A stretch of DNA of 64,000 nt from an uncultured Bacteroidota bacterium (GTDB lineage Bacteria; Bacteroidota; Bacteroidia; UKL13-3), in assembly GCA_903910445.1 (NCBI GenBank), contig CAIVZR010000014.1:48432-112431 (forward strand), given 5' to 3'. This document shows positions 7,601 through 51,412 of the stretch, in pieces; within the stretch, counting starts at the first letter, position 1, and every line of letters starts with the position of its first letter. A program made the translations under genes and the position numbers. The notes below the pieces were generated by a model. That model made no database searches and was not told the DNA's origin. It was given only the letters and a program-made list of their open reading frames with translations.

Positions 7601-10407
7601 GTTGAACCTGTAAAACCATTACCAGTATGAAGTGGAACTCCACTGATATCATTGAATCCGTCATAAACTAAGATATAATCATTCGCAGCCATTTTAAGTT
7701 GTTGGAATTTCAATCGAATGGTGCCACTACAACCCGGTCGTATTAAGAATCCACAGGTTTCATTATCTCCATAAGTTCCATCACGGGCTCCACTATCCAT
7801 GATTACACCACTCTTAAACGTGGTAGTCACTGCTGTATTGTCGCACATGGTAAACCCATCCGTAACAATAATATATTTGGTGATTTTAGCACTGTCGGTT
7901 CCAGCAGGGTTACTCACTTTTAACTTTACTGTAAACGTATCAGCACGATTGTAAAAGTGCTGGGGGTATTGCAATGTAGAAGTGGTTGAATCGCCAAAAT
8001 CCCATAACCAGGTTGTGGGGTCATTGGTACTTAAATCGAGATAGGATACAATTTGACCAACCCTAACTCCCAATGGTGATGCTGAAAATGAGGCTGCTGG
8101 TTTGGAATAATTTTTCGTGGTAAAAGTTTTTGTTATACTGTCACATCCTGACACATTACATACCACTAGCTTTGCACTATAGGTGCCTAATGCGTTGAAT
8201 GTCACTACCGGATTTTGAGAAGCGGCACTAGTTCCATTCACAAAACTAACTGTTGCAGGGCTAAACGACCAAAGCCAAGAGGTAGGACTATTTACTGAGA
8301 TATCGATGAGATTGGTAGGTGCACCAATATATGGATTAAATGAGTTACTTGTAAATTGAGCTATCGGCACAGCCAATTGAATTACTTTTGAACTAACAAT
8401 CGTATCTGTGCAACCGGCGCTACTAGTAACAATTAACTTAACACTATAAACCCCGGCACTAGCGAATACATGAATTGGGTTTTGGAAATTAGATGTATTG
8501 TTAACTCCTGAAGATGGATCACCAAAATTCCATTGCCATTGCACCATAGTGCCGCCAGTACTCGCATCAGAGAATTGAATTGGGGTATTCACTGAAGTGT
8601 TATTCATACTAAATTGAGCAACAGGTTTTTCTACTTCAACTGCTTTGGTAATAACTGAGGTAGGCGAGCCTGAAGCAGATGAGGTAACAGTGAGCTTTAC
8701 ATTAAATACACCTGAAGTACTGAATAAATGTTTTGGATTTTTAAGTGTTGAAGAATTAGCGCCTCCTGAGCCAGCATCGCCAAAGTCCCATTGCCAAGAA
8801 GTAATAGTTGCACTTCCAAAAGTAAAACTATAATCATTTAATTGAGTGGAGTCACCTTTACAAACGGTACCACTCTTAAAATCGGCAACAGGTTGACCAT
8901 CTTCTTTGATCATGATACTGTAATCTTCTACCTCACCAATGAGTGTAGGATTGGTACATGCGCTTGGGTAAGAGGCACTTTGTGTGGAGATACGCATTCG
9001 AGTTTTACCACATATAGCACTTGTTGGAATATTGAAGAATAATTTCTTTTCGAGCAGCATAGCATTGGCTGGGCTTCGAATAATGGTATCGAGTACAATA
9101 CGTTCATTTACATCATCAAAGAAACCATCTCTGTTAAAATCGATCCACGCAGCATAAGCAGTGCTATTTACACCATTACCTAAAGTGATATAAATTGAAT
9201 CTTTTGTAATACTTGAACTACTTTTCGTGATGGTATCCGACAAGTAAGTATAGTTGTCGTAATTGTTGGTATTGTAATAAGAAAAATTATTCAATGAACG
9301 CATACGAACCTGATTGATGTATACATAAAAACTCTGAGTTCCTTTACTGATGCAGTATCCTACTTGTCGATTTCCAAAAGGACTAATCACAGCAGGTACC
9401 CGCTGAATATTTGTTACTGTAATAAAATTACATCGTGCATCAATTTTATTATCCAATACGGCATTAGAAGTAATATTATAGCTTAACCAGAAATAATTTT
9501 TACCTGGCAATAATGATTGAGCTGGATTAATAGAAAACGAATTTGAGAAATTGGTAGTGATGCTACCAACTGGAGTTAGCGTATCGAAGGTTGGTTTTAG
9601 TCCAGTATAAAACAGGCGTGCTTTACTAATTTCATTAGGATTGGTGGTGCCAATAGAACTAAAATTAATATCTCCAACCGTGAGTGGATTAAGAGAACCA
9701 TTGCTATTGGTAACCACCTCGATTCCTATTACTTGGTTATTAACGCTTCCTTTTACAACATCATCGAGTATTGTTTGTGTTGTTGTGCTAGATAAAAATA
9801 TTTGTGGTTGCGCTGCCACTACATTGATAGCAAAATCTACAAATTGTTGAGACCAATTATTTCCTCCATTGGCTGTTGCCGGATCATTATTAACACAAGG
9901 GTCGAGGGTTGCATTTACACCAAACTTTGTTGCACAACGCATACGAATGATTCCTAAGGCAGCATTCGCAGGAAAATTAACTGTGGTGGAATAGGTATGA
10001 GTCCCAATATTGGCTGGATCATTTTGAAATATTATTTTTTCCGAGGTTTCAAAAGTCTTATTCCCATTAAAATCGACCCATACACTTAAAGTTTGTTGGT
10101 TGGCACCATTTCCAAGTTGAATAGTTATTGGGTAAGAATTCCCTCTAACACAAGCTGTTGGAGTGGTTGGAACGGTTGTTTGATTTTGGTAGGGGGGGAT
10201 TGTAGTATACCAAGATGGTTGAAAATTTGTAAAATTAATATCTCCAAATTGCACTTTGTATATATGGGTAAAGGACGTAGCATAAGCCATATGTCCAGCA
10301 CCAGCAATATCGATTCCATAGCCAGTATAGCTTGGGGTGCAATATACCTGAGCACGTGCCGATATGATTGATAAGGTTAGAAAAAGGATTAGTAAAAAAT
10401 TTTTCAT
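4639..10407 (-). CDS. Giant (1922 aa) T9SS-secreted mosaic cell-surface protein: signal peptide, at least 5 PKD-like repeats, 2 CUB-like domains, 2 GEVED motifs, 3 HYR/Ig-like (DUF5011-like) repeats, C-terminal Por/T9SS sorting domain
   Basis: Signal peptide MKNFLLILFLTLSIISARAQ. The WxWDFGD...NPxHxF...Y.VxLxVT motif recurs (PKD-like). CUB-like domains: CGF..PGCSG...YDG and CDF..IPCVS...VYDG. GEVEDYS/GEVEDYG. The VxDNVNGNIT...YNVKDSSGNA-type repeat occurs 3 times. The C-terminus ...NPTHDIVNLKLQF...AAGIYLLNISNSQGTITQKIIKE is typical of the TIGR04183-type CTD. Confidence 0.85.
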   Translation of the reverse strand: MKNFLLILFLTLSIISARAQVYCTPSYTGYGIDIAGAGHMAYATSFTHIYKVQFGDINFTNFQPSWYTTIPPYQNQTTVPTTPTACVRGNSYPITIQLGNGANQQTLSVWVDFNGNKTFETSEKIIFQNDPANIGTHTYSTTVNFPANAALGIIRMRCATKFGVNATLDPCVNNDPATANGGNNWSQQFVDFAINVVAAQPQIFLSSTTTQTILDDVVKGSVNNQVIGIEVVTNSNGSLNPLTVGDINFSSIGTTNPNEISKARLFYTGLKPTFDTLTPVGSITTNFSNSFSINPAQSLLPGKNYFWLSYNITSNAVLDNKIDARCNFITVTNIQRVPAVISPFGNRQVGYCISKGTQSFYVYINQVRMRSLNNFSYYNTNNYDNYTYLSDTITKSSSSITKDSIYITLGNGVNSTAYAAWIDFNRDGFFDDVNERIVLDTIIRSPANAMLLEKKLFFNIPTSAICGKTRMRISTQSASYPSACTNPTLIGEVEDYSIMIKEDGQPVADFKSGTVCKGDSTQLNDYSFTFGSATITSWQWDFGDAGSGGANSSTLKNPKHLFSTSGVFNVKLTVTSSASGSPTSVITKAVEVEKPVAQFSMNNTSVNTPIQFSDASTGGTMVQWQWNFGDPSSGVNNTSNFQNPIHVFASAGVYSVKLIVTSSAGCTDTIVSSKVIQLAVPIAQFTSNSFNPYIGAPTNLIDISVNSPTSWLWSFSPATVSFVNGTSAASQNPVVTFNALGTYSAKLVVCNVSGCDSITKTFTTKNYSKPAASFSASPLGVRVGQIVSYLDLSTNDPTTWLWDFGDSTTSTLQYPQHFYNRADTFTVKLKVSNPAGTDSAKITKYIIVTDGFTMCDNTAVTTTFKSGVIMDSGARDGTYGDNETCGFLIRPGCSGTIRLKFQQLKMAANDYILVYDGFNDISGVPLHTGNGFTGSTIPDTLFAYSGAIFIKMQTNLAGTDSGFVAQWIADDNVKPKVSILTDTIGYVNSIMRYKNLTTGAGNVYSWDVNGDGVSDSTTKDASFRFTITGNFMIRLIAKNCIGADTGYFLIKIVAPTRVPEANFAANKVVLDLNDEIILTDLSQYGATRWKWELTQDATGFAQGFVFSNGTNDTMMAPNILFYEPGYYTICLTSTNIIGSSVKYCKTAYIFVKDRATMCFPINTSNTKQGKIFDSGDNIGNYSASENCDFVISIPCVSKIVMSFKSFNFANGDYLRVYDGIDSISGIPLFSGAGFSGANSPGVLTSYSGSFYILERTNASLNAAGFEADWIAYDKDSTNTKLELSAADTGYVNASHVFRNNALPNAYYSYDFDGNGLIDTISNGTIFSHKFTSPGTYSGVLYDLTCGTQSATKKVIILNATQKPVANFDANIRNPATNDTVILFDLSKYGASTFSWSISPATYTLLNSSLSNGLVRVVFNATGSYNVSLSATNSFGTDAITKTAFINVHSLCAPSFNSGQTGIGIYRVQVGLMNHTSTQTYGYHDYSQTYITQLEKGSSGNFIASERLATAIAQSWSIWLDANQDGIFSASERVGQVLNSTANLISGNITVPNTALPGYTKIRFAAYFGTTAVADGCSAMANGEVEDYGVMIITDRTPPVITLLGNNPDSVEIGHTYTDPGATALDNVNGNITANIVKTGTVNTNVLGVYSLFYNVKDSSGNAAIQKVRAVKVTVDKTAPTITLLGADTIFVEVHFPYIELGATASDLVDGNVTNKIIIAGFVDTATVGSYTITYQITDLAGNIQIKFRKVIVRDTTKPIITLLGSAIVNIVRGGTYTEAGATVTDNYYKGLIPIITGTVLPNVLGQYTLLYDVTDGSNNKAVTVQRIVNVNPPAGIQTNLGLNSFSITPNPTHDIVNLKLQFNELSKVMITLTDIQGKTLVTLDDQILTKEFQINLSDYAAGIYLLNISNSQGTITQKIIKE

Positions 10408-28242: not shown

Positions 28243-29502
28243 TTATTGTTTTATAAATATTTTTCGATCTGATGATATTCCATCACTATGCACTATAACT
28301 GTATAAGTCCCATTCGAAAGATTAGAGATATTAAATTTTTGAGAAACCTCTCCCCCATTTGTTTTTGAGCGCATGCATAATACCAATTTCCCATCGGTGT
28401 TATAAATACAATAAGAAACCGATGCTGGTTTATTGAGAAGAAAATGAACAGTTAGCTCATTTATACTTGGACTAGGGTAAACGCTCAATTCAAGAATCTG
28501 TTGTTTTTTATAATTAATACCTGCCGATTTCGGATTCATCCATTGACCAATATTAGCAGCATAAAGCTTATTAGTTATGATATTTTTCTCATTGGTGATA
28601 TATACATTACTACTATCCTTGAAACAAATACCTTCTATTTGTCCGGTATTGGTAAAAAATCCGAAATCAATTTTGCGCTTATTTCCACTAAATATTTTAC
28701 TGCCATTAAAATCCCAAAGTAACCACAAATAGCAAAAACCATTCTTGTTATAGCTTGTGAGTGCGATTCGCTTTGATTGAGGATCGAAGCTTGCTCCAGT
28801 AATTAAACAACCAGGATCAAATGAATCGATGGGCTGAATACTATAGGTGCCGGGAATCGTTGAGAGGGTATAATGTTTTGAATGTCCATTGACCCAATCT
28901 TTACTAAACAAATGCAAGGTGTCATTCCAAACAAACATCGATTCACAATCAAAACTATTTGCATTACTTTTAGAAGAAAAATCAGTTTGATCGGAATAAC
29001 TAAAATGGATTTTTTGTGCTGTTATACTATCAACCATCTTCGATGAAAGTTGCGATAAGGCAATTTTGTAAACTATTAAATCTTTTCGATTTCCATTATT
29101 ATTCCCAAAATCTCCGATATAAAGATTATTAGCATCAACAGTCATATCCTCCCAATCATTATTGGATGAGTTACTAATAAATATTGTTTGAAGAATCATT
29201 CCAGTTGTTTTATCAAAATGATAAATAGCATGCGGATTGCCACTATCGCCAAGAGTCCATAGTTCGCCCTTAATATAAACAAGCGCGGAGGTTTCAATGA
29301 TAGTATCTGATAGCTTGTCAATTAGCTTTATTGGGCTATAGGAGGTGCTGTTATAGGTGCAACTGCCATCATTATAAATTGCACTGGGATTGTAGTTGTT
29401 TGCCTGAAAATCAGTACAACCGTTTGTTTGTGCAATTGTTACATTTGCAATCCAGGATATGAAACAGCTTACAAAAAAAAATTTCTTTAGAATCATTTTC
29501 AT
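28243..29502 (-). CDS. T9SS C-terminal-sorting-domain protein with beta-propeller-like (SdiA-regulated/phytase-like) central domain
   Basis: Signal peptide MKMILKKFFFVSCFISWIANVTIAQ. The C-terminal CTD is ...LSVYPSPSINELTVHFLL...GTYTVIVHSDGISSDRKIFIKQ. The start is ambiguous between 29502, 29526 and 29595. Confidence 0.7.
   Translation of the reverse strand: MKMILKKFFFVSCFISWIANVTIAQTNGCTDFQANNYNPSAIYNDGSCTYNSTSYSPIKLIDKLSDTIIETSALVYIKGELWTLGDSGNPHAIYHFDKTTGMILQTIFISNSSNNDWEDMTVDANNLYIGDFGNNNGNRKDLIVYKIALSQLSSKMVDSITAQKIHFSYSDQTDFSSKSNANSFDCESMFVWNDTLHLFSKDWVNGHSKHYTLSTIPGTYSIQPIDSFDPGCLITGASFDPQSKRIALTSYNKNGFCYLWLLWDFNGSKIFSGNKRKIDFGFFTNTGQIEGICFKDSSNVYITNEKNIITNKLYAANIGQWMNPKSAGINYKKQQILELSVYPSPSINELTVHFLLNKPASVSYCIYNTDGKLVLCMRSKTNGGEVSQKFNISNLSNGTYTVIVHSDGISSDRKIFIKQ
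29473..29481. repeat. A9/T9 homopolymer tract at the junction of two divergent, overlapping genes
   Basis: acAAAAAAAAAtttc. It lies inside the signal-peptide codons (KKFFF) of the minus-strand T9SS gene and about 20 nt upstream of the CATG shared-start palindrome. Confidence 0.6.
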
Positions 29503-31234
29503 GCGCAAGATAATATTTTTCTTCATTGGGTTTGCTACAGTGATGCAAGCGCAACAAATAACCCCATTTGAAATTAGTAAAGGTGTGTCAACCACAACAT
29601 TAAGTGAATGCTTGAGCTTTTACGAAAAATTGGCTAGTTCAAACAAGAGATTTGTAAAAATCACGGATGCGAATCTAAGTCCTGAGAATTTGAAGTACCA
29701 TGCTGCAGGTCAAATAAAATTAATTAGCATCACTAATTTCTCAGTGAAAAAAGAAAAAATAAAAATCTTTATCAATAATGGCATCCATCCAGGAGAACCC
29801 GATGGTATAGATGCTTCAATGATGCTTGCTCGTGATTTCCTTCAAAAACCAGCGTTGCGTAAAATGCTTGATGAAATTGAACTATTTATTATTCCTATTT
29901 TCAATACCGGAGGTGCGCAACAAAGAGGTTGCTGTAGCCGGGCCAACCAAGATGGGCCTATTGAATATGGTTTCAGAGGCAATCCTTTAAACCTGGATTT
30001 GAATCGCGATTTCATCAAATGTGATGCTTTAGAAACCATTGTTCTTCAAGATTTTTTCCAACAAACAAAACCACATTTTTTTATTGATACCCATGTTAGC
30101 GATGGTGCCGATTATCAATATACAATGACCCTAATTGCATCACAACATAACAAGTTACAGAATGAAGCACTAGATCAGTTTCAACAAAAAAAGTTACTAC
30201 CTGTATTATATCAAAGTATGAAATCGGCAAATGAGGAAATGTGCCCTTATGTTGATTTTGACAAGGAAGTTCCCGATTCGGGAATCACCTCATTCTTTGA
30301 TAGCCCCAGATATAGCACTGGATATACTTCAATGTTTAACTGTTTTAGTTTTGTATCCGAAACACATATGCTAAAACCATTTAACAAAAGGGTGAATGCA
30401 ACATATACTTTATTAAATGAAATTATAAAATTTGCTTACAATCAAAAACCTGCGATTCTTGAGGTAATGCGTCGTGCAGATAGCTTAACACAAAATCAAA
30501 AATCAATCGCATTGAAATGGGCTTTAGATACCAATCAATTTGAAGATTTGGATTTCCGAGGCTACACTGCTTTTTATGCCACAAGCCCTGTTACCAAACA
30601 ATCACAGCTATATTATAATCAAGGAGCTCCGTATCAAAAAACAATAAAATATTTCAATACATTTAATATCACCAAAAGCATCGATTATCCAAAAGCATAT
30701 GTGATGCCTTATGAGTGGTATGAAAAACTCAATTTACAGAGATACCATTTGAACATCATCATTTCAAAGGATACGAATGTTTTTGTAAAGGCATATACCC
30801 GCGTACAATTCACTGCGCGCAAAAACCCTTACGAAGGAAATATCCCGGCAGTGCTTGAATATTATATAAAAGACTCGTCGCATCAAGATTTAAAAGGAAA
30901 TTGGGTTATCATCCCATTGGAAAACAATATTCGATATCGCCGGTTTCTAACGGAAGCCATTGAACCAGAGAGCCCCGATGGTTTTTTTGCTTGGGGTAAG
31001 ATGTATAGTTTTGTACAACAAAAAGAAGGATTCAGTGATTATGTATGGGATAAACGGGCATGGGAGATTTTAGTAAATGACCACTCCTTGAATGAGAACT
31101 TTGTATTGATGAGAGATCAAGGCAAAAGTAATTTTGCAAAAAACAAGCAGCTGCAGCTTGACTTTATCTACCGTCATAGCAAATATTACGAACCTACTCA
31201 TGTGAGATTTCCCATTTTTAGAATTGATTATTAA
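29501..31234 (+). CDS. M14-family zinc carboxypeptidase, secreted
   Basis: Signal peptide MRKIIFFFIGFATVMQAQ. Zn-binding HPGEPDG (HxxE), plus NLDLNRDF. The ORF-track start at 29459 is also possible. Confidence 0.75.
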   Translation: MRKIIFFFIGFATVMQAQQITPFEISKGVSTTTLSECLSFYEKLASSNKRFVKITDANLSPENLKYHAAGQIKLISITNFSVKKEKIKIFINNGIHPGEPDGIDASMMLARDFLQKPALRKMLDEIELFIIPIFNTGGAQQRGCCSRANQDGPIEYGFRGNPLNLDLNRDFIKCDALETIVLQDFFQQTKPHFFIDTHVSDGADYQYTMTLIASQHNKLQNEALDQFQQKKLLPVLYQSMKSANEEMCPYVDFDKEVPDSGITSFFDSPRYSTGYTSMFNCFSFVSETHMLKPFNKRVNATYTLLNEIIKFAYNQKPAILEVMRRADSLTQNQKSIALKWALDTNQFEDLDFRGYTAFYATSPVTKQSQLYYNQGAPYQKTIKYFNTFNITKSIDYPKAYVMPYEWYEKLNLQRYHLNIIISKDTNVFVKAYTRVQFTARKNPYEGNIPAVLEYYIKDSSHQDLKGNWVIIPLENNIRYRRFLTEAIEPESPDGFFAWGKMYSFVQQKEGFSDYVWDKRAWEILVNDHSLNENFVLMRDQGKSNFAKNKQLQLDFIYRHSKYYEPTHVRFPIFRIDY

Positions 31235-41273: not shown

Positions 41274-41300
41274 TCACCTTATTTCCCAACTTTAATAAAA

Positions 41301-41332
41301 AGCCTGTATCTTCTTTGGATACAGGCTTTTTA
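41301..41332 (+). terminator. Rho-independent terminator after the bacilliredoxin gene
   Basis: aaaAGCCTGTATCttctttgGATACAGGCTttttt: a perfect 10-bp stem. Confidence 0.6.
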
Positions 41333-41376
41333 ATGTATTTGAGATATTTTTTTTGTATTTTTGTAATTCATCCTAC

Positions 41377-44187
41377 ATGAGCCAAATTCCAATGAGAGTA
41401 ATAATTTCAGCAATTTTTATTATCCTATTTGCCGCTTCGATTCAAGCACAAATTGTGACCACTTCACCGGCATTCCCTACCGAAACCGATTCGGTGACAA
41501 TTACATTCGATGCAAGTAAAGGGGCTGGCGGACTTAATAACTGCAATTGTGATGTATACCTTCATACAGGAGTTATTACTTCTCTAAGTACTGGCAACAG
41601 CGACTGGAAACATGTTTTTACTACCTGGGGAGTTGCTAACCCTGCTTGGAAGCTGACTGCTCTAGGGAATAATCTATTCACCTACAAATTCGCGCCTAGC
41701 CTTCGTTCAGCATATAGTGTCATTGGAAGTGAAACCATTCAAAAAATAGCATTGGTATTCAGAAATGGTGATGGAAGTAAAGAAGGGAAAGACAATGGGA
41801 ATACAGATATTTTCGTTAATGTGTATCCTGCGAATACCTTTAATGTCTCATTTAACTCTCCATCAAAGGGTGCTATAAAGAATGTGAATGATACGGTAGT
41901 TATTAATGCAGCTTCTTCCAGAAGATCAGCTTTAGCTTTGTATGAAAATGGCACCCTGGTTTCGAGTTTACCTAACGATTCGGTTATAACCTTCAAAACA
42001 GTAAGCGTTGCTCCTGGAAATCAGAAATATGTTATTAGTGCAACCTATAATGGCAACACAAAATATGATACTTTAAATTATACAATTTATGGAGGAACAC
42101 CAATCGCAACACTACCTTCGGGAGTTCGCCCAGGAATCAATTATACAGGTGCCTCATCGGTTACACTATGTTTAACTGCACCTTTTAAAAACTATATTTA
42201 TGTTATCGGCGATTTCACACAATGGAATCCCGATGCCGCTACCTTAATGAATAAAACCCCCGATGGTAAGTATTTTTGGGTAACTATTAATGGGTTGCAA
42301 AACAATACGGAATACGCATATCAGTATTTAATTGATGGGAATTTGAAAGTTGCCGATCCGTTATGTGATAAAATTTCTGACCCTTGGAACGATGGATATA
42401 TTCCGGCTTCAATCTATCCCAATCTCAAACCTTACCCTGCTGGAAAGACTTCAGGAATTGCTTCTGTATTTCAACTAGGCCAAACGCCATTTAATTGGCA
42501 ATACTCAAGTAGCTTTCAAAAACCCGCTAAAGAAAATTTAAATATCTATGAATTACTCATTCGCGATTTTCATAGTGGTCATAGCTATAAAAGTGTAATG
42601 GATTCATTAGAATATTTAAAACGCATGGGCATCAACGCCATTGAATTAATGCCTTTCAGTGAGTTTGAAGGCAATGAAAGTTGGGGGTATAATGTTGATT
42701 TTCATATGGCCATTGACAAAGCCTATGGCCCTAAATACGACTTGAAGCAACTCATCGATAAATGCCATCAACAAGGAATAGCGGTAATCATGGATATGGT
42801 ATTAAACCATGCATTTGGATTAAATCCAATGGTACAAATGTATTTCAACACATCGGCGAATACAGTATCCACACAAAACCCTTGGTTCAATACTGCGGCT
42901 ACGCACCCATTTAGCGTTGGCTACGATTTTAATCATGAGAGTGTTTATACGCGCGATTATGTTGACACCGTTTTATCTTATTGGTTGCAAGAATATCATT
43001 TAGATGGCTTCCGATTTGACTTATCAAAAGGCTTCACTCAAAAAAATACAGGAACCGATGTTAATACTTGGGGGCAATATGATGCAAGTCGTATCAATAA
43101 TTTACAACGTTTGTATGATAAGGTTAAAACCTATTCCCCTGCTGCATATATGATTCTAGAACATTTTGCAGATAATGCCGAAGACAAAGAATTGGCTAGT
43201 CGTGGATTTTTACTTTGGGGCAATTTAAACTATGCATACAACCAAAGCAGCATGGGCTATTCAAGCGGATCTGATTTGAGTTGGGGTAGCTCCAAAGCGA
43301 GAAGTTTTACCGATAATAATTTGGTGGTTTATATTGAAAGTCATGATGAAGAAAGATTAATGTATAAAAATATTCAATATGGTAATTCGAACACCGATTA
43401 TAATGTAAAGGCGTTATCTACTAGTTTAAAAAGGCAAGCAGCAGTGGCTGCAATCTTCTATTCGCAACCTGGCCCTAAAATGATATGGCAGTTTGGAGAA
43501 CTTGGATATGACTTTAGCATTAATCGTTGTGTAGATGGTACGGTGAATAATAATTGCAGATTGGATTCAAAACCCATTCGCTGGAATTATCTCCTAGAAC
43601 CCGATAGATACCGACTCTATCAGGTGTTTGGCGCAATGCAATTGTTACATAACAATACTGAATTCATTACAAATAACTACGAGTGGTATACCAATGGAGT
43701 GGTAAAAAATGCCAAAGTAAATGGGACCAATTTAAAAGTAAATACCATTGTAAATTTCGACATTGCGCCTCAAATAGGAACTCCTAATTTTCAGAATACT
43801 GGTTGGTGGTATGATTATTTAAGTGGAGATAGCATACAAGTTACTAATACGGCAATGACGTTCAATTTGCAGCCTGGAGAGTATCATGTATATACCTCAA
43901 AGAAAGTAACACTCCCATCATGGATTACCACGAAAGTTGGACCCAGCGGTATTGAGCAAGGTAATAACATGGATGAATTGCAACTATATCCGAATCCCGC
44001 AAAAAACGAAATCACTATTTCAATTTCGAGTGATGTTACCAAATATCAAGTTGTGGATGTATTAGGCCAAATTCTTTTGAAAGGCAATTCGCATAACCAT
44101 AAAACAACACTTGATATTAGCACACTTTCTCCAGGAGTTTATTTTGTAGTTGTTGGTGTCAGTCAATTGAAATTTATTAAGAACTAA
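41377..44187 (+). CDS. T9SS-secreted alpha-amylase-family (GH13) enzyme with N-terminal Ig/CBM-like domains and C-terminal Por sorting domain
   Basis: Signal peptide MRVIISAIFIILFAASIQAQ. GH13 regions: GINAIELMPF, VIMDMVLNHA, GFRFDLSKG, and YIESHDE. The CTD ends ...LQLYPNPAKNEITISISS...LSPGVYFVVVGVSQLKFIKN. The ORF-track start at 41353 is TTG. Confidence 0.8.
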   Translation: MSQIPMRVIISAIFIILFAASIQAQIVTTSPAFPTETDSVTITFDASKGAGGLNNCNCDVYLHTGVITSLSTGNSDWKHVFTTWGVANPAWKLTALGNNLFTYKFAPSLRSAYSVIGSETIQKIALVFRNGDGSKEGKDNGNTDIFVNVYPANTFNVSFNSPSKGAIKNVNDTVVINAASSRRSALALYENGTLVSSLPNDSVITFKTVSVAPGNQKYVISATYNGNTKYDTLNYTIYGGTPIATLPSGVRPGINYTGASSVTLCLTAPFKNYIYVIGDFTQWNPDAATLMNKTPDGKYFWVTINGLQNNTEYAYQYLIDGNLKVADPLCDKISDPWNDGYIPASIYPNLKPYPAGKTSGIASVFQLGQTPFNWQYSSSFQKPAKENLNIYELLIRDFHSGHSYKSVMDSLEYLKRMGINAIELMPFSEFEGNESWGYNVDFHMAIDKAYGPKYDLKQLIDKCHQQGIAVIMDMVLNHAFGLNPMVQMYFNTSANTVSTQNPWFNTAATHPFSVGYDFNHESVYTRDYVDTVLSYWLQEYHLDGFRFDLSKGFTQKNTGTDVNTWGQYDASRINNLQRLYDKVKTYSPAAYMILEHFADNAEDKELASRGFLLWGNLNYAYNQSSMGYSSGSDLSWGSSKARSFTDNNLVVYIESHDEERLMYKNIQYGNSNTDYNVKALSTSLKRQAAVAAIFYSQPGPKMIWQFGELGYDFSINRCVDGTVNNNCRLDSKPIRWNYLLEPDRYRLYQVFGAMQLLHNNTEFITNNYEWYTNGVVKNAKVNGTNLKVNTIVNFDIAPQIGTPNFQNTGWWYDYLSGDSIQVTNTAMTFNLQPGEYHVYTSKKVTLPSWITTKVGPSGIEQGNNMDELQLYPNPAKNEITISISSDVTKYQVVDVLGQILLKGNSHNHKTTLDISTLSPGVYFVVVGVSQLKFIKN

Positions 44188-44253
44188 TAATCTTTAATTC
44201 GTCTGTATCTTTTTTTAACTTTCTTCATTATGCATCTATAAACGGTATGCATC

Positions 44254-45267
44254 ATGAATAAATCATTACTCTTTCTATTTCTGTTCGGGTTTATACAAAA
44301 TAGTATTGCCCAACAAGATGGGTATCAAACACATTTTCAATTTAACGAAATATCATTCAACCCTTCGTATGCTGGAAAGACTCCTAATGCCATTTGTGTA
44401 AGTTCCTTGTTTCATCAACAATATTTAGGATTCGAATCGGATGAAGTTCGTGATGCTAGACAGGACGCTATAATTAAACCCTATAATATTGCACCCCAAA
44501 CCCAATTCTATACGGTGTCGGCGAGGCTCCAAAACAATTTAGGTATGGCAATTCAATTGATGAATGATCGGATTGGTCCGCAATCAATAACGCTTCCCAA
44601 AGTTCAGATGGCCTATTATTTTAATTGGTCAACCTCACATTTAGCTATTGGATTTTATGCAGGCGCATTGCAGAAAAGTTTAGATGGTTCGAAATTAATT
44701 CCATTATCCATGATGCAAGCTCCTTATCAACCCGACCCATTAGTGCCTGCTAATTTGGTGACGGACACAAAACTCGATTTTGGCATCGGAATTCATTACC
44801 AAAAGGCTACCTTTTATAATTTAAAATTAGGAGCATCTTTAAATCATTTAAGAAATCAGAAATATCACTTTACAAACTACCAATCACAACTTATTGTTTT
44901 CTCAAGCACGCTTCCTCACCTGTATTTCAATGGTTCCATGGAGTTCCCATTACAAAACAAGCTAATTATTCAACCCAATATTTTAATTAAATATGGCGGA
45001 AAATGGCAATATGATCTGAATGTGCTAGCAATTTATAACCAATCTTATTATACCGGATTTTCCTATCGGCAAGGCGACAATTTAAATTGGATGTTGGGTT
45101 ATATGATTGGAAGTTTTAAGGCTGGCTATGCTTTTGATTGGGTATTAAGCCAGCTTCGACCAGGAAGTAAAACAACCCACGAAATATTTATTCAATATTG
45201 CTTTATGATTACCAAACGAACCTCCTATTTAATTAATCCTCGTCACTTGAAGGATTACTCATTCTAA
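44254..45267 (+). CDS. T9SS membrane protein PorP/SprF family (copy 1)
   Basis: Signal peptide, then the hallmark N-terminus QQDGYQTHFQFNEISFNPSYAGK (compare qqdpqfsqymfn...NPAyAG). The length is that of an OM beta-barrel. The C-terminus reads ...SKTTHEIFIQYCF...LINPRHLKDYSF. Confidence 0.8.
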   Translation: MNKSLLFLFLFGFIQNSIAQQDGYQTHFQFNEISFNPSYAGKTPNAICVSSLFHQQYLGFESDEVRDARQDAIIKPYNIAPQTQFYTVSARLQNNLGMAIQLMNDRIGPQSITLPKVQMAYYFNWSTSHLAIGFYAGALQKSLDGSKLIPLSMMQAPYQPDPLVPANLVTDTKLDFGIGIHYQKATFYNLKLGASLNHLRNQKYHFTNYQSQLIVFSSTLPHLYFNGSMEFPLQNKLIIQPNILIKYGGKWQYDLNVLAIYNQSYYTGFSYRQGDNLNWMLGYMIGSFKAGYAFDWVLSQLRPGSKTTHEIFIQYCFMITKRTSYLINPRHLKDYSF

Positions 45268-45355
45268 ATCGCCCATAACTAATTGTAATATTTTTTTGTT
45301 ATATTTGAATTAATCTACATATTTGCATACTTACACCTTTAATCGAAAAGGAGAC

Positions 45356-46381
45356 ATGATTAAAAAAATTACCCTATTATTCCTCGTTGCTGTTTCATTT
45401 AGTGCTTGGTCACAACAAGATGGTTATCAAACACATTTTCAATTCAATGAAATGTCATTCAACCCATCTTATGCAGGAAAAGTAAAAGACAAAATGTGCG
45501 TGAGCCTTTTGATGCATCAGCAATATGCCGGTTTCAAAAGTGAATTAATCAAGGCAGCCGATGGAACCCCTGCGGTAGAGCCTTATAATATTGGTGCTTC
45601 AACTCAATTTTTGAATCTTTCGGCCCGTTTGTTTGGAAAGTTTGGAATCGCAGTGAATGTAATTAATGATAAGATTGGCCCACAAACCTATATTTTGCCA
45701 AAGCTAAGCTTGTCGTATTACAATGTATTTAAAAATACAAGCGAAATTTCTGTAGGTTTATACTATGGGAAAATGCAAAAAACCTTGGATGGCACCAAAC
45801 TTAAGGCCCTATCATTATTACAAAACAATATTGCCGATCCGGCAGTACCATCAACATTGGTTACTAGTAATATGATGAATGACTTAGGATTTGGAATTCA
45901 TTACCTAAATCCAATCATGAACAATTTGAATATTGGAGTTTCTGCTACTCACTTATTAGAATCTAATATCGTTGATAAATCTAAATCACTTTTAACTCCT
46001 TTCTCTTCTATAAAAAGACATTTCTATGCTAATGCTGCAATGGATTTCCCTGTTGGAGCTGGAGATTTAGTTATACAGCCTAACTTATTAGTTAAGTATG
46101 GTGGTAAACTTCAAATAGATTTAAATGCACTTGCAATCTTCAATGAGCAATATTATGGTGGCTTGTCTTATCGTCAAGGCGACAATATTAACTTGATGGT
46201 TGGATTTATGCAAGGCGACTTTAAAGTTGGATATGCATTCGACTTTATTGTAAATGGGTTGAAACCAGGTAGCAAAACTACCCATGAAATATTTGTTCAG
46301 TATTGTAAGGGCATTAAATTCAAGACCAAGGTAAATAAATATATGTTGAACCCTCGCCACTTGAAGGATTCTCAATATTAA
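45356..46381 (+). CDS. T9SS membrane protein PorP/SprF family (copy 2, tandem paralog)
   Basis: QQDGYQTHFQFNEMSFNPSYAGK... and C-terminal SKTTHEIFVQYC...MLNPRHLKDSQY. These parallel copy 1 but are diverged elsewhere. Confidence 0.8.
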   Translation: MIKKITLLFLVAVSFSAWSQQDGYQTHFQFNEMSFNPSYAGKVKDKMCVSLLMHQQYAGFKSELIKAADGTPAVEPYNIGASTQFLNLSARLFGKFGIAVNVINDKIGPQTYILPKLSLSYYNVFKNTSEISVGLYYGKMQKTLDGTKLKALSLLQNNIADPAVPSTLVTSNMMNDLGFGIHYLNPIMNNLNIGVSATHLLESNIVDKSKSLLTPFSSIKRHFYANAAMDFPVGAGDLVIQPNLLVKYGGKLQIDLNALAIFNEQYYGGLSYRQGDNINLMVGFMQGDFKVGYAFDFIVNGLKPGSKTTHEIFVQYCKGIKFKTKVNKYMLNPRHLKDSQY

Positions 46382-46590
46382 TTTTTTAACAAGCTGTCAC
46401 AATAAATTTACAATTGCAGCGTTATTGATATAATTCGACAAAAAAACACTATACTTGTCAAACAATAAAAACGAAAAATTTACGTTATTGATAAAAAGAC
46501 ACCGGAAATTGAAAAAAACAAAAACTATTGAGGGGAGGATTGAATTATAAAGTTTTTTAATACGAAACTTGTTTAATTCAGTAAAATTTT

Positions 46591-46598
46591 TAAATTTG
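46591..46598 (+). promoter_or_regulatory. Bacteroidota-type -7 box (TAAATTTG) upstream of gldK
   Basis: The box is 21 nt before the gldK ATG (46620), with cTTGttta about 20 nt further upstream. It lies in a 238-bp AT-rich intergenic region. Confidence 0.3.
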
Positions 46599-46619
46599 CA
46601 ATCTATAATTAGTATAACT

Positions 46620-47942
46620 ATGCGTAAAAGTTTTCAATTTCTGTATGTTTTGGTAATGGCAATCGTCATTTTGGCAGGCTGTACAGGTGGTGATAATGGT
46701 CAGATGTACGGTGTACCAAACCGTCCAATATGGACTCATCCTCAACCTTTTGGGATGATTTACGTACCTACTGGAACTTACCATATGGGGCAAAGTGATC
46801 AGGAAGTGGGTTCACATCAAATTCATCGCAACAAACAAGTTTCAATTCCAGCATTCTACATGGATGATTCTGAGATTTCTAACAATGAATATCGTCAGTT
46901 TGTTTACTATGTTTCTGATTCAATTTTCAGAGAAAATCTTTCTCAAAGCATTGAAACTGTTAAGACTCAGATTGGTGAGGAAAGTGATGATCCATATTCT
47001 GTAATTAATTATAAAGAAAAATTTGATCCTGAATCTCAGGAGGCTACTGATGCTGCCCAATTAATGCAATACAAACCTGGGGAGCGTTTTATGCATCGCC
47101 GTCAGTTAGATGTACGTAACTTAATATACAAATACGAAATATTCGATTTTCAAGCTGCTGCTCGTTCTGCTAAGGTTCAAAGCAATGAAGACTTAAAATC
47201 AGCCCATAGTAACGAAGATCATTCACACTTTATTAAAAAATACAAGGTGCAAATCTATCCTGATACTTTGGTATTCGTTAGAGACTTCGCTTATTCATAT
47301 AATGAGCCAATGGCAGAAAATTATTTCTGGCATCCAAATTATGACGATTATCCAGTAGTTGGTGTGAATTGGAATCAAGCCAATGCATTTTGCTGGTGGA
47401 GGACACGTCATATGAATGATTGGGCAATGTCGGTAGGTGATTTTGAAAGAACTCAATTCTTATTGCCAACCGAATCACAATGGGAATATGCGGCACGTGG
47501 TGGTCGCGATGAAAACATGTTTCCTTGGGGGGGGCCTTATATCCGCAATACCAAAGGATGTTATTTAGCGAACTTTAAACCCGGACGTGGTAATTATATC
47601 GCAGATGGTGGCTTTTATCCTGTAAAAGTATATTCTTATTTCCCGAACGATTACGGCTTATATAATATGGCTGGTAACGTTTCTGAGTGGACTTCTTCTG
47701 CTTACTTGGAATCATCCGTTTCGGTAGTTGATGACTTGAGTCCTGATTATAAATATCAGGCTAAAGATGATGAACCAGAGACCTTTAAGCGTAAAGTAAT
47801 ACGTGGTGGTAGCTGGAAAGACGTTGGGTACTATTTGGAATGCGGTAGTAGATTGTACGAGTATCAAGATACTTGTAAATCATTCGTCGGTTTCCGTTGT
47901 GTTCAACCTTACATGGGTCGTTCTAATAAAGACAAGAAATAA
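46620..47942 (+). CDS. gldK: Gliding motility / T9SS lipoprotein GldK (PorK ortholog; FGE-sulfatase fold)
   Basis: Lipoprotein signal MRKSFQFLYVLVMAIVILAGC. FGE-like motifs WNQANAFCWW, LPTESQWEYAARGG, RGGSW and GFRCV. Confidence 0.85.
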   Translation: MRKSFQFLYVLVMAIVILAGCTGGDNGQMYGVPNRPIWTHPQPFGMIYVPTGTYHMGQSDQEVGSHQIHRNKQVSIPAFYMDDSEISNNEYRQFVYYVSDSIFRENLSQSIETVKTQIGEESDDPYSVINYKEKFDPESQEATDAAQLMQYKPGERFMHRRQLDVRNLIYKYEIFDFQAAARSAKVQSNEDLKSAHSNEDHSHFIKKYKVQIYPDTLVFVRDFAYSYNEPMAENYFWHPNYDDYPVVGVNWNQANAFCWWRTRHMNDWAMSVGDFERTQFLLPTESQWEYAARGGRDENMFPWGGPYIRNTKGCYLANFKPGRGNYIADGGFYPVKVYSYFPNDYGLYNMAGNVSEWTSSAYLESSVSVVDDLSPDYKYQAKDDEPETFKRKVIRGGSWKDVGYYLECGSRLYEYQDTCKSFVGFRCVQPYMGRSNKDKK

Positions 47943-48028
47943 TAAAAGCCTGTCCTCTTCTCTTTGATTTTATTTTTTTTAACCATATTCTTAACCTAAA
48001 TTTTTTAATTTTTTAAACCTTCACACAC

Positions 48029-48826
48029 ATGAAAAAGAGTTTTTTTGAAAGCAAAGGTGCTAAACGTTTTTTGTCAATGGCTTACGGATTAGGAGCCGCA
48101 GTTGTAATTTTGGGAGCCATGTTTAAAATCTTGCACTTGAAATTTGCGAACGAAATGCTAACCATTGGTATGACTGTAGAGGCAATTATCTTTGCAATTT
48201 CTGCTTTCGAACCACCTCATCAAGATATCGACTGGAGTTTAGTTTATCCAGAATTGGCAGGAGAAGAAGGAGGAAATGCGGGAAAAAAGAACACAGGTTC
48301 AGTTTCAGCTCAACTTGACAAAATGCTAATTGATGCGAAAGTAACCCCTGATTTGATTGGTACTTTAGGTACAGGATTGAAATCTTTGAGCGAAAATGTA
48401 AATAACATGTCAAATCTTTCAAATGCAGCTGCTAATACTTCTGCATATGCTGAAAACGTTCAAAAAGCGTCTAAAAATATTGAAGGATTGAGTACATCTT
48501 ATGTTAAAGCTACAGAAGCAATGAATGCAATGTCAGCTTCTTCTGAGAATTCAAAACAATATGCGGAACAAGTAAGTAAGGTAACTAAAAACCTTTCTGC
48601 ATTGAATACACTTTATGAAGTAGAATTACAAAACACTGATTCTCATATTAAGAACATGAGTACATTCTATAACAAATTAGGAAATGTATTAGGTAACTTG
48701 TCTAGCGCAGAAGCTAATTCGGCTGGAGTAAAAGAAGAAATTGGCAAATTGGCTAAAAACTTAACCAATTTGAATAACGTTTATGGCAATATGTTGAACG
48801 CAATGTCAGCAGGCCGTCAATCATAA
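48029..48826 (+). CDS. gldL: Gliding motility / T9SS protein GldL (PorL ortholog)
   Basis: YGLGAAVVILGAMFKILHL...AIIFAISAFEPPHQDIDWSLVYPELAG matches the GldL N-terminal two-TM signature. The C-terminal region is coiled-coil. Confidence 0.85.
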   Translation: MKKSFFESKGAKRFLSMAYGLGAAVVILGAMFKILHLKFANEMLTIGMTVEAIIFAISAFEPPHQDIDWSLVYPELAGEEGGNAGKKNTGSVSAQLDKMLIDAKVTPDLIGTLGTGLKSLSENVNNMSNLSNAAANTSAYAENVQKASKNIEGLSTSYVKATEAMNAMSASSENSKQYAEQVSKVTKNLSALNTLYEVELQNTDSHIKNMSTFYNKLGNVLGNLSSAEANSAGVKEEIGKLAKNLTNLNNVYGNMLNAMSAGRQS

Positions 48827-48919
48827 TTTTGATTGCAAACGAATTCAATTTCATTAACTTAATAAAGATACCTAATTGGTAAATTTTTAATCATAACAAT
48901 CGAATAATTAAAATATAAA

Positions 48920-50497
48920 ATGGCATCAGGTAAAATATCACCACGTCAGAAGATGATCAATATGATGTACCTCGTATTGACAGCGATGTTGGCGTTGAAC
49001 GTATCTTCCGAAATCTTAAAAGCCTTCTATAAGTTTGAAGTATCAATGCAAAGTGCGGGAAGCAATCTCGATGCAGCGAACGTAAAGCTTTTAGGTGCAA
49101 TGGATAAGGAAGTTGATAAGCAAGGAGAAAAGGCTAAACCTTTTAGAGATAAAGCTTACGAAGCGAAAAAAATCGCAGACGAATTTGTAAAATATATTGA
49201 GGACACAAAATCAATCCTTTTGGAAAAAGATTCAAAAGATGGTGCTAGTCCACGTGAAGAAGATGGTCAATTGAAAAGCTCAAAAGACATGGAAAGAGCC
49301 GTTCAGTATTTCTTAGAAAACAAGGATGCTGAAGGAGGAAAAGATGCAAAAGGAAAAGAATTGATGGCTAAAATCACGGAAACTCATGAGAAATTATTAG
49401 CTTTAATTGAAGATCCGAATGATAGAGCTGGCATAAAATCCGATTTAGTATGTACAGATCCAGAACCTAATAAAGAAGGGGAAAAACTAACTTGGTTAGA
49501 AGAAACTTTCCACTCTTTACCACTCGCTGCAGCATTTGCGAATTTAACGAAGTATCAAAATGATGCTAAGAAAACTGAAACAGATGTAATCAGCTACCTT
49601 TCTACTAAAATCAATGCAACTGACTTTAAATTTGATGGCTTATCGCTTTCAATTAATGCAGCTTCCGCTTCAGTGTCTTCAGGTGGAAAATACACAGCAG
49701 AAATCTTCTTAACGGCCTATAATACCAAACAAAAAAACGATGTTTATGTTAATGGTGCAGTGCTTCCGTTAAAGGATGGTAAAGGAATTTATGAAATAAC
49801 TGCTAGTGGAGAAGGAATTCATAAATATCAAGCTAAAATTTCATTGGTTGATCCTATTACTGGCCAACCAAAAGATTATACCGCTGAAGGTGAATATCAA
49901 GTATTCTCACCTGTGGCTACGATCTCGGCCTCGAAAATGAGTATCTTCTATGCTGGTATTGATAATCCAGTTGATATTTCTGTACCAGGATATCGTGGAA
50001 ATCAAATTAGCGCAAGTTGCGATAATGGAACACTAACAGGTACTAATGGTTCATATAATGTGAAAGTACAAATGGGCCCTACTCGTGTTGCTAAAATTAA
50101 TGTTGTAGCAAAAGGCGACGATGGAACAGCTAAATCATTTGTAAAAGAATTTAAAATCCGCCCACTTCCTCCATTGGCTGTAACTGTAAATGGAAAAGAA
50201 GGTGGAGGTATCACTGGTTCTGAAATTCAAGTTTGGAACTTTGTAAATGCTTCTTTCGGTCCTTCATTCGCTTATGATGGTTTAACATACGCTGTTACTA
50301 GCTACCAATGTATTGTTCAAACTAAAAACGGAGCACAACCATTTAGTGTTACAGGACCCGCAGTAAGCCCCGATTTAAAAGCCGCAGCAGCTCGTTGCAG
50401 AAAAGGCGATTTGATCATTTTCTATAATATCAAAGCCGCTAGTGCAACCGCTCCAGCTAAAAATATTGATAGCGGTCCAGTATTCAGAGTACAATAA
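48920..50497 (+). CDS. gldM: Gliding motility / T9SS protein GldM (PorM ortholog)
   Basis: The N-terminus MASGKISPRQKMINMMYLVLTAMLALNVSSEILKAF is the GldM hallmark. The protein is 525 aa and periplasmic. Confidence 0.85.
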   Translation: MASGKISPRQKMINMMYLVLTAMLALNVSSEILKAFYKFEVSMQSAGSNLDAANVKLLGAMDKEVDKQGEKAKPFRDKAYEAKKIADEFVKYIEDTKSILLEKDSKDGASPREEDGQLKSSKDMERAVQYFLENKDAEGGKDAKGKELMAKITETHEKLLALIEDPNDRAGIKSDLVCTDPEPNKEGEKLTWLEETFHSLPLAAAFANLTKYQNDAKKTETDVISYLSTKINATDFKFDGLSLSINAASASVSSGGKYTAEIFLTAYNTKQKNDVYVNGAVLPLKDGKGIYEITASGEGIHKYQAKISLVDPITGQPKDYTAEGEYQVFSPVATISASKMSIFYAGIDNPVDISVPGYRGNQISASCDNGTLTGTNGSYNVKVQMGPTRVAKINVVAKGDDGTAKSFVKEFKIRPLPPLAVTVNGKEGGGITGSEIQVWNFVNASFGPSFAYDGLTYAVTSYQCIVQTKNGAQPFSVTGPAVSPDLKAAAARCRKGDLIIFYNIKAASATAPAKNIDSGPVFRVQ

Positions 50498-50515
50498 TCT
50501 ATTGAACGTTTTAAT

Positions 50516-51358
50516 ATGAAAAAGGTAATAATTATATTCATTGTTTTGTTTGCTTTAGCATCACAAATCAATATTCAGGCTCAAACACCAGCTTATGAAA
50601 CGCCTGGTGCTTTTCCTAAGCAAGCAGTTGCCGAACGTAAAATAGTGCCTTGGCCTTATTTACGTGAAGCAGATGTAATGTATTCACGCCGTATTGAGCG
50701 TGTTGTTGATACTCGTGAAAAGATTAATCTTTGTATGAAATGGCCTAAAAACCCTTTGTATGATATCATCTATAAAGCAGTTACAGAGAAAGCTACCTTG
50801 GTGGCTTACAAGTCAGATTCACTATCATCCTTTTATACTGCTGAAGAAGTATTAAAACTTGGTTCATATGATAAAAACATTCAGGTTTATCCAGATCCGA
50901 ATGACCCTTACTATGCAATTGATTCTGTGATTCCGGTTCGTTTCAAGCCAGAAGAAATCAGAAAATACAAAATCATTGAAGAGTGGATTTTTGATCGTAA
51001 TACATCTGAAATGTATGTTCGTATTTTGGCCATTGCTCCAATGTACCGCCCTGTAGCTGGTAGTACTGGTATTGAACTTCCTGAACAAGAGATGTTCTAT
51101 ATCAAATATAACGACGCTCGTAATATCTTTGTTAATGAAGAATTGTTTAACCGTTTCAATGATGCAGGTCGCTTAACAGTAGACGACTTCTTTGAACAAC
51201 GCTTATTCAATAGCTATATCACCAAAGAAAGTAATGATTATGACCTCGCTATTCGTCAGTTTGAAGAATTTAAAGTAGATCCGTATGAAGCGCTATTAAA
51301 AGGCGAAGAAGTGAAGAACAAACTTTTTGAATTCGAACACGATTTGTGGGAATTTTAA
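50516..51358 (+). CDS. gldN: Gliding motility / T9SS protein GldN (PorN ortholog)
   Basis: It has a signal peptide and is about 280 aa. It is the last gene of the gldKLMN cluster, 18 bp after gldM. Confidence 0.8.
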   Translation: MKKVIIIFIVLFALASQINIQAQTPAYETPGAFPKQAVAERKIVPWPYLREADVMYSRRIERVVDTREKINLCMKWPKNPLYDIIYKAVTEKATLVAYKSDSLSSFYTAEEVLKLGSYDKNIQVYPDPNDPYYAIDSVIPVRFKPEEIRKYKIIEEWIFDRNTSEMYVRILAIAPMYRPVAGSTGIELPEQEMFYIKYNDARNIFVNEELFNRFNDAGRLTVDDFFEQRLFNSYITKESNDYDLAIRQFEEFKVDPYEALLKGEEVKNKLFEFEHDLWEF

Positions 51359-51380
51359 TCCTACCCTAAATATTATTTTA

Positions 51381-51412
51381 AAACCCCATTGTTTACGCAA
51401 TGGGGTTTTTTT
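51381..51412 (+). terminator. Rho-independent terminator of the gldKLMN operon
   Basis: aaaaCCCCATTGtttacgCAATGGGGttttttt. Confidence 0.6.

Follow-up and report, generated by a model that had tools for sequence, protein, structure and literature searches.

The 64,000-nucleotide stretch analysed here (contig CAIVZR010000014.1, positions 48,432 to 112,431, from an uncultured Bacteroidota bacterium; hereafter the window) carries in canonical form the porP-gldK-gldL-gldM-gldN core module of the machinery for type IX secretion and gliding, and its porP is preceded by a second, tandem porP. We call the two copies PorP_A and PorP_B in the order in which they are read. Sequence comparison indicates that the duplication is old, that the gldK-proximal PorP_B occupies the ancestral porP slot, and that PorP_A is an old tandem paralogue limited to one sub-lineage. 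From the way in which the two copies have diverged, we propose that PorP_B is the core PorP and that PorP_A serves as a second carrier, one whose surface loops differ and whose periplasmic interface is loosened, a reading to which we assign a probability of roughly 0.55.

Ancestry of the two porP genes

PorP_A (337 aa; 44254-45267, forward strand) and PorP_B (45356-46381, forward strand), a PorP/SprP orthologue, are full-length members of the PorP/SprF family, in agreement with the initial annotation, which had placed two tandem genes of this family directly upstream of gldK. PorP_A scores 143 bits against PF11751 (E 1.4e-41) and 160 bits against TIGR03519, and PorP_B scores 146 (E 2.5e-42) and 166 bits, above the curated cut-offs of 22.3 bits for PF11751 and 90.55 bits for TIGR03519. 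The listed TTG start of PorP_B at 45323 is probably too early; the ATG at 45356 (MIKKITLLF...) suits the homologues. Signal peptide cleavage, as read from the sequence, falls between SIA and QQ in PorP_A and between AWS and QQ in PorP_B. The two proteins align over their full length at 51% identity (BLASTP E 2e-121). Their AlphaFold2 models contain 14 strands each, with predicted local distance difference test (pLDDT) values of 78.4 for PorP_A and 79.5 for PorP_B, and the best Foldseek matches of the PorP_B model are FadL (2r88, E 1.7e-8) and PorV (8gl6_F and 6h3i_F, TM-score 0.52). Both copies are predicted to be 14-stranded FadL-like outer-membrane barrels. PorV, the general carrier of type A cargo, and FadL share with the PorP_B model the 14 strands and an N-terminal segment before strand 1, at a sequence identity to PorP_B of about 11%; a sequence search of the Protein Data Bank (PDB) returned no structure of a PorP/SprF protein.

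The termini of the two proteins are very similar, as had been noted at the outset. Both copies carry the N-terminal plug motif QQDGYQTHFQFNE[I/M]SFNPSYAGK, the stretch SKTTHEIF[I/V]QYC and a C-terminal tail, which reads INPRHLKD in PorP_A and LNPRHLKD in PorP_B (a trivial mismatch with the initial annotation, which gave the second form for both). In 22 of 22 subfamily sequences QQDGYQTHFQFNE.S.NPSY.GK, Cys48, Cys316/317 and the tail proline are invariant, and the arginine and histidine of the PRHL tail are nearly so. The cysteine pair and a C-terminal (T/N/S)PR(F/H/Y/W)L tail are also found in many of the cluster representatives that come closest outside the subfamily, a set of 149 PorP-like sequences. 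Since they are found throughout the subfamily and are common beyond it, the similar termini are not the trace of a recent duplication; they are signatures of the family, made up of an N-terminal plug, a PR[FH]L tail at the C-terminus and a cysteine pair that would join strand 1 to strand 14. Gene conversion was ruled out as a cause of the similarity, the identity between A and B copies being equal within genomes (0.54) and between genomes (0.53), also in the N-terminal plug (0.85 and 0.84).

Close homologues of these proteins are rare. Among 5.8 billion proteins there are 20 clusters at 47% identity or more, and the next matches stand at 29%; an exhaustive HMMER search through 1.84 billion representatives shows the subfamily as one 50% cluster at 553 bits plus fragments, followed by a drop to 222 bits. 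A scan of genome contigs yielded seven loci, all in metagenome-assembled genomes (MAGs), and a scan of metagenome contigs one further close locus and some distant ones, while a profile search with outgroups gave no new subfamily members and mostly Cyclobacteriaceae PorPs. All genomic matches (numbered below with L for related loci and P for related PorP proteins) are metagenome contigs or MAGs titled 'Bacteroidetes/Bacteroidia bacterium', and the lineage is one of uncultured freshwater Bacteroidota, so far represented by metagenomes and MAGs only.

All related loci share one gene order: ATP synthase, DUF2452, GlgB, disulfide isomerase, amylase or acyltransferase, PorP, gldKLMN, acyltransferase, OstA-like and TilS. 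Both states of porP copy number occur among them. Two copies are present in seven loci (the window, L001/L002, L006+L011, L010, L019, L020 and L021), though the contig of L010 ends within the upstream copy, which was not assigned to clade A, and one copy is present in six or seven (L003, L012, L004/L009, L007, L008 and the contigs of P0014 and P0015). A PorP_B-type gene adjoins gldK on the same strand in the window and in 13 of 13 distinct related loci. The same holds for Algoriphagus, the closest named relative of the profile, which has one PorP directly upstream of gldKLMN; PorP_A lies one gene further off. In the one-copy syntenic relatives the sole PorP is of the B type. In the MAG closest to the window, ZH-15may19-286, two contigs end inside PorP_A (L006 1-609 and L011 10001-10375, at residues 125 and 135), a break that strain variation in the faster-evolving gene may have caused during assembly.

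Neighbour-joining trees separate a clade A, made up of the first gene of the window and P0001-P0008, from a clade B, which holds the second gene of the window and all genes from one-copy genomes. Among genomes with both copies, the branching of one sub-tree is mirrored in the other: the window is closest to L019, next to L020 and then to L021. Five other complete two-copy loci supply orthologues of each copy. The mirrored branching implies that both genes have co-diverged since before these genomes split. Orthologues of PorP_B are 75-97% identical to the window protein, and those of PorP_A go down to 56%. Between the two paralogues synonymous divergence (dS) is saturated, and the longest exact DNA word that they have in common is 20 nt. 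PorP_B can be placed in the ancestral slot because it is the sole copy in one-copy genomes, always lies beside gldK and keeps the same upstream block in both groups.

The duplication could also be older than the whole sampled lineage, with PorP_A lost several times and the one-copy state derived. We rate this history as a serious possibility that falls short of probable. When the tree is rooted with outgroups, clade A branches as the sister of all B-type sequences; all B copies share a derived state at three sites where A matches the outgroup, and no site supports a grouping of A with the two-copy B genes. The symmetric rate tests described below point in the same direction. However, such a history needs at least three independent and clean losses without a remnant, and the one-copy gaps upstream of PorP_B measure only ~200 bp. 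The two-copy genomes group into one subclade of the B tree, as would be expected from a single gain together with long-branch attraction of the faster A copy, and distant relatives have a single porP (Algoriphagus and, by the literature, Porphyromonas gingivalis and Cytophaga hutchinsonii).

Divergence of the two copies and their candidate roles

Ratios of nonsynonymous to synonymous change (dN/dS) show that both copies are functional genes under purifying selection and that PorP_A is the less constrained. Values for PorP_A are 0.087, 0.080 and 0.100 against L001, L019 and L006, and those for PorP_B are 0.006, 0.022 and 0.034 (three close relatives). We then mapped substitutions on the AlphaFold2 topology, with the same genome pairs for A and B. 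Differences amount to 0.35 in PorP_A and 0.18 in PorP_B for the strands, 0.40 and 0.28 for the extracellular loops, 0.59 and 0.15 for the periplasmic turns, and 0.46 and 0.14 for the C-tail. Overall, PorP_A changes at about twice the rate of PorP_B; in the predicted periplasmic turns the factor is about four to five, and the excess there is kept in gap-free columns (0.59 against 0.12; permutation p = 5e-5). The long extracellular loops, L1, L3 and L4 of the barrel, are about equally conserved within each clade and share 0.21-0.53 identity between clades. The simplest reading of these model-based assignments is that the periplasmic face of PorP_B is strongly constrained and that of PorP_A is not, and that each copy presents a conserved surface face of its own.

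PorP-like proteins are outer-membrane carriers that collect cargo whose C-terminal domain (CTD) is of type B and anchor it on the surface (PMC9143113, PMC12618676), whereas type A cargo uses PorV (PMC12618676, PMC12635249). In P. gingivalis, PorE is a binding partner of PorP in a complex with which PorK and PorN are associated (PMC9143113). Disulfide bonds link the PorP-like SprF, as well as PorG, to a cysteine that is invariant in GldK/PorK (PMC12635249, PMC12365241), and the GldK of the window keeps this partner-binding residue as Cys314. PorP_B would be the core carrier or anchor, with the GldK/GldN ring or track and PorE-like partners as its docking sites, and its periplasmic docking is proposed because its periplasmic turns and tail are strongly conserved. 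PorP_A would serve as a second carrier for different surface cargo, the likeliest candidate being a type B CTD protein whose gene lies outside this locus, and its periplasmic docking would be relaxed or altered. The suggestion of two cargo-specific adaptors, made in the initial annotation, is plausible by analogy, as it agrees with the biology of PorP-like carriers and with the divergence pattern.

Several observations weigh against this division of roles. Tajima tests with distant outgroups give no overall rate asymmetry between A and B (30:23, 25:24, 29:33 and 20:25), so the faster evolution of PorP_A may be confined to less conserved positions or to recent lineage history. The placement of the duplication depends on neighbour-joining trees and three shared-derived sites, and the assignment of loops and turns on AlphaFold2 models of moderate confidence (pLDDT 78-80), with only 23-25 residues in turns. 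The scanned open reading frames (ORFs) of the window include no type B CTD protein, and neither a type B CTD cargo nor a PorE-like gene lies beside either porP. Since the only neighbouring cargo is of type A, the cargo proposed for PorP_A is purely inferential.

The three CTD cargo proteins counted at first are indeed present in the window, and all three are of type A (TIGR04183). One is the product of the gene that precedes PorP_A, a secreted enzyme of the alpha-amylase family (41353-44187, forward strand; PF00128 E 3e-23, PF18962 E 1.2e-12, TIGR04183 E 5e-12). The others, both on the reverse strand, are a 1922-aa PKD/GEVED/CUB/Ig-like surface protein (4639-10407) and a 450-aa protein of unknown family (28243-29595). 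A further protein of 818 aa (1366-3822, forward strand) combines thrombospondin type 3 repeats with a C-terminal OmpA-like peptidoglycan-binding domain; as a candidate PorE it scores 68 bits against NF052230, with a cut-off of 600, and is alike in the OmpA part only, so that by this test it does not count as a PorE.

The conserved cysteines lie where the barrel would close. Cys48 (44395-44397 in PorP_A, 45497-45499 in PorP_B) stands at the start of strand 1 and Cys316 of PorP_A (45199-45201) or Cys317 of PorP_B (46304-46306) at the end of strand 14 in the AlphaFold2 topology. Across this antiparallel seam the two positions face each other, residues 48 and 317 giving the same sum as the two strand ends (48+317 = 46+319). 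Among 141 full-length representatives, both cysteines are present in 114, Cys48 alone in 2, Cys317 alone in none and neither in 25 (Fisher's exact p = 1e-25). This covariation suggests an intramolecular seam disulfide at the periplasmic rim. SprF is built differently, in that a Cys-X-Cys motif in its periplasmic C-tail bonds Cys343 of GldK (PMC12635249), whereas the window PorPs have a single cysteine at the end of strand 14; no C-tail Cys-X-Cys occurs in PorP_A, PorP_B or any of the 149 related cluster representatives. It is conceivable, if doubtful, that the pair is more than a staple for the seam and acts as a 'donor' disulfide that is attacked by GldK Cys314 and so tethers the gldK-adjacent PorPs covalently to the GldK/GldN ring or track, much as SprF and PorG are tethered through another arrangement of cysteines.

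The two copies might instead be redundant or add to dosage, both doing the core PorP job. Each keeps the plug motif, the cysteine pair, the PRHL tail and the predicted fold, and purifying selection acts on both. Redundant copies, however, rarely survive such divergence. The extracellular loops are conserved within clades and differ between them, constraint on the periplasmic turns and C-tail is 3-4 times weaker for A than for B, and the two genes have different upstream blocks, all of which makes redundancy unlikely.

It is very unlikely that PorP_A is the dedicated partner of the adjacent secreted amylase, in a cargo-carrier pair like sprB-sprF. The arrangement has its appeal: a gap of 66 bp that holds no terminator separates PorP_A from the CTD amylase gene upstream, and carrier genes typically lie directly downstream of their cargo (PMC12618676). 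Yet the CTD of the amylase is of type A (TIGR04183), the class of cargo that PorV serves (PMC12618676, PMC12635249). Nor does the amylase follow the copy number of porP: it lies beside PorP_B in the one-copy loci L003, L007 and L012, and it is absent from the two-copy locus L021, where the order is disulfide isomerase, PorP_A, PorP_B. The amylase is an upstream neighbour, not demonstrably part of the unit.

The recent tandem duplication, now subfunctionalising, that the initial annotation had offered as its other explanation finds support in the adjacency, common strand, similar length and very similar terminal motifs of the two genes, but can be set aside in view of the 51% identity, the saturated dS, the two clades with orthologues in the same genomes (five other complete two-copy loci, with B only 75-97% identical), the motifs shared by the whole subfamily and widespread beyond, the 20-nt longest shared word and the equal paralogue identity within and between genomes.

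The gldKLMN genes and the upstream regions

Six genes, all on the forward strand, make up the ORF list within 44254-51412. Downstream of the two porP genes, the order is K-L-M-N, and each of the four genes exceeds its NCBI equivalog cut-off, confirming the complete gldKLMN module described initially. GldK/PorK, the outer-membrane lipoprotein of the ring or track (46620-47942), scores 550 bits against TIGR03525 (cut-off 350); GldL/PorL, the motor stator subunit (48029-48826), 251 bits against TIGR03513 (cut-off 68), with PF22827 at E 3.4e-31; GldM/PorM, the motor rotor subunit (48920-50497), 335 bits against TIGR03517 (cut-off 180), with all of domains 1 to 4 matched by Pfam (PF12081, PF21601, PF21602 and PF12080); and GldN/PorN, the ring subunit (50516-51358), 179 bits against TIGR03523 (cut-off 86), with PF19841 at E 5.7e-61. 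Profile searches scored both upstream ORFs as PorP/SprF and these four neighbours as GldK, GldL, GldM and GldN, the opposite of the outcome that the initial annotation had named as its refutation. Against three close relatives the dN/dS of GldK, GldL, GldM and GldN ranges from 0 to 0.05.

GldK has a lipobox (LAGC, Cys21) and an FGE-like fold, and it is 99% identical to its counterparts in L001, L006 and L019, at a dN/dS of 0.013-0.025. Its listed TTG start at 46569 is probably too early; the ATG at 46620 (MRKSFQFLYVLVMAIVILAGC, a lipoprotein signal) suits the homologues. The protein matches PorK in the PDB (9mzu, E 2.7e-93), with KGCYLANFKPG aligned to RGCFLGNFKPG, and Cys314 aligns with Cys356 of P. 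gingivalis PorK. Three extra C-terminal cysteines, Cys408, Cys419 and Cys427, are encoded at 47841-47899 (YLECGSRLYEYQDTCKSFVGFRC), where P. gingivalis PorK has one in the aligned stretch. In L003 (GCA_026390915.1, 8577-9897) gldK is split into ORFs of 118 and 293 aa, through an assembly frameshift or as a pseudogene; it is intact in the near-identical locus L012.

A strong intrinsic terminator at 51380-51409 (forward strand; a 13-bp stem with 5 G-C pairs, a 4-nt loop and a T run) closes the gldKLMN unit, as the initial annotation had read it. In the window this terminator is followed by an acyltransferase, and no second GldN-like gene comes directly after gldN. Some relatives do have such a gldO-type gene in that position (L010 7306-8016 and the contig of P0014).

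The A+T-rich spacer between porP_B and gldK (46382-46619) measures exactly the 238 bp first reported when the ATG at 46620 is taken as the start; it is 76.5% A+T, and the box TAAATTTG lies at 46591-46598. Promoters of Bacteroidota have the consensus -33 TTG / -7 TAnnTTTG with a 19-nt spacer. Upstream of gldK, CTTG at ~46568-46571, 19 nt and TAAATTTG match this pattern, forming a putative promoter that is followed by a 21-nt conserved leader. Nine loci, among them one-copy genomes with saturated synonymous sites in the coding sequence, show almost no variation in the ~55 nt ahead of the gldK ATG (CTTGTTTAATTCAGTAAAATTTTTAAATTTGCAATCTATAATTAGTATAACT), a stretch that takes in the putative promoter. 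Independent transcription of gldKLMN, as first suggested, is favoured by this conserved block of its own; on the other side, there is no forward-strand terminator between the paralogues and gldK, so read-through is possible. A terminator lies upstream of the amylase at 41296-41332, the next on the forward strand begins at 51380, and none was found between 41332 and 51380.

Each porP gene also has a conserved block before it. The porP_A-porP_B intergenic region (45268-45355, forward strand) holds a promoter-like block for PorP_B (TTTG, 19 nt, cATATTTG and a leader), and this arrangement, TTTTTTTG-19 nt-cATATTTG plus leader, is kept in 12 of 12 aligned loci, one-copy and two-copy alike. The block upstream of PorP_A (44188-44253; TGTATC(T)TTTT...CATTAT) is kept in six of six aligned two-copy loci, including L021, where the preceding gene differs. 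It departs from the -33/-7 pattern of Bacteroidota and may serve as an operator or as a promoter recognised by a different sigma factor. With these blocks, the locus would comprise three separately expressible units. A sigma-70-type scan, the consensus of which differs from that of Bacteroidota, found 44 sites against 43.8 expected.

Further conserved blocks in the porP-gldK spacer, at some distance upstream of the putative promoter (46440-46545; AATAAAA...CGTT...GAAAAAAACAAAAACTATT), occur in one-copy genomes as well and may be binding sites for a regulator. A structured RNA or riboswitch in the 238-bp gap was considered and rejected, given the lack of any Rfam match at gathering score in the window and a folding z of +0.87 against shuffles.

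Relation to known systems and implications

The order of the module is that of P. gingivalis porP-porK-porL-porM-porN, in which PorP (PGN_1677) lies directly upstream of porK/gldK and is a FadL-like outer-membrane barrel, like the PorPs of the window. P. gingivalis porP is likewise not placed directly downstream of a type B CTD cargo gene. A further point in common is the PorK cysteine that forms the PorG disulfide, Cys356 (PMC12365241), conserved in the window as GldK Cys314. Two features set the window apart: P. gingivalis has one PorP, its sole PorP-like protein (PMC9143113), where the window has two in tandem, and the gldKLMN genes of the window stand behind a 238-bp spacer with a conserved promoter-like block of their own.

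The gene for SprP of C. hutchinsonii (CHU_0170) is another that we take to adjoin gldK. SprP is the single-function PorP orthologue of a gliding, free-living member of the Bacteroidota and is needed for secretion and gliding (PMC11611037); it is present in single copy.

SprF of Flavobacterium johnsoniae and the nine other PorP/SprF-like carriers of that organism belong to the same family (PF11751/TIGR03519) as the window PorPs. There the principle of several paralogous carriers in one genome, each with a cargo of its own, is established (PMC9143113, PMC12618676), and it is the same principle that we propose here. In F. johnsoniae the genes for these carriers come directly downstream of those for their type B CTD cargo and are often accompanied by a PorE-like gene, whereas neither window copy is so placed; this placement is typical of SprF-like carriers and does not define them.

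The core module itself is ordinary, and the extra porP adds one more case to a paralogy of PorP/SprF proteins that is known on a larger scale, with ten copies in F. johnsoniae. What the locus offers is a natural experiment, in which two proteins share the same slot, fold and terminal motifs, and one keeps its periplasmic rim and tail while the other drifts. The contrast between PorP_A and PorP_B points to the surface of a core PorP that likely contacts the GldK/GldN ring or PorE, and it suggests residues for mutation in model organisms. The conserved promoter-like blocks provide testable transcription start sites for porP and gldKLMN in a lineage without a cultured member. Were the donor-disulfide reading of the cysteine pair true, two different carriers would ride on one track in this lineage, and PorP_A would have exchanged non-covalent periplasmic contacts for new surface cargo.

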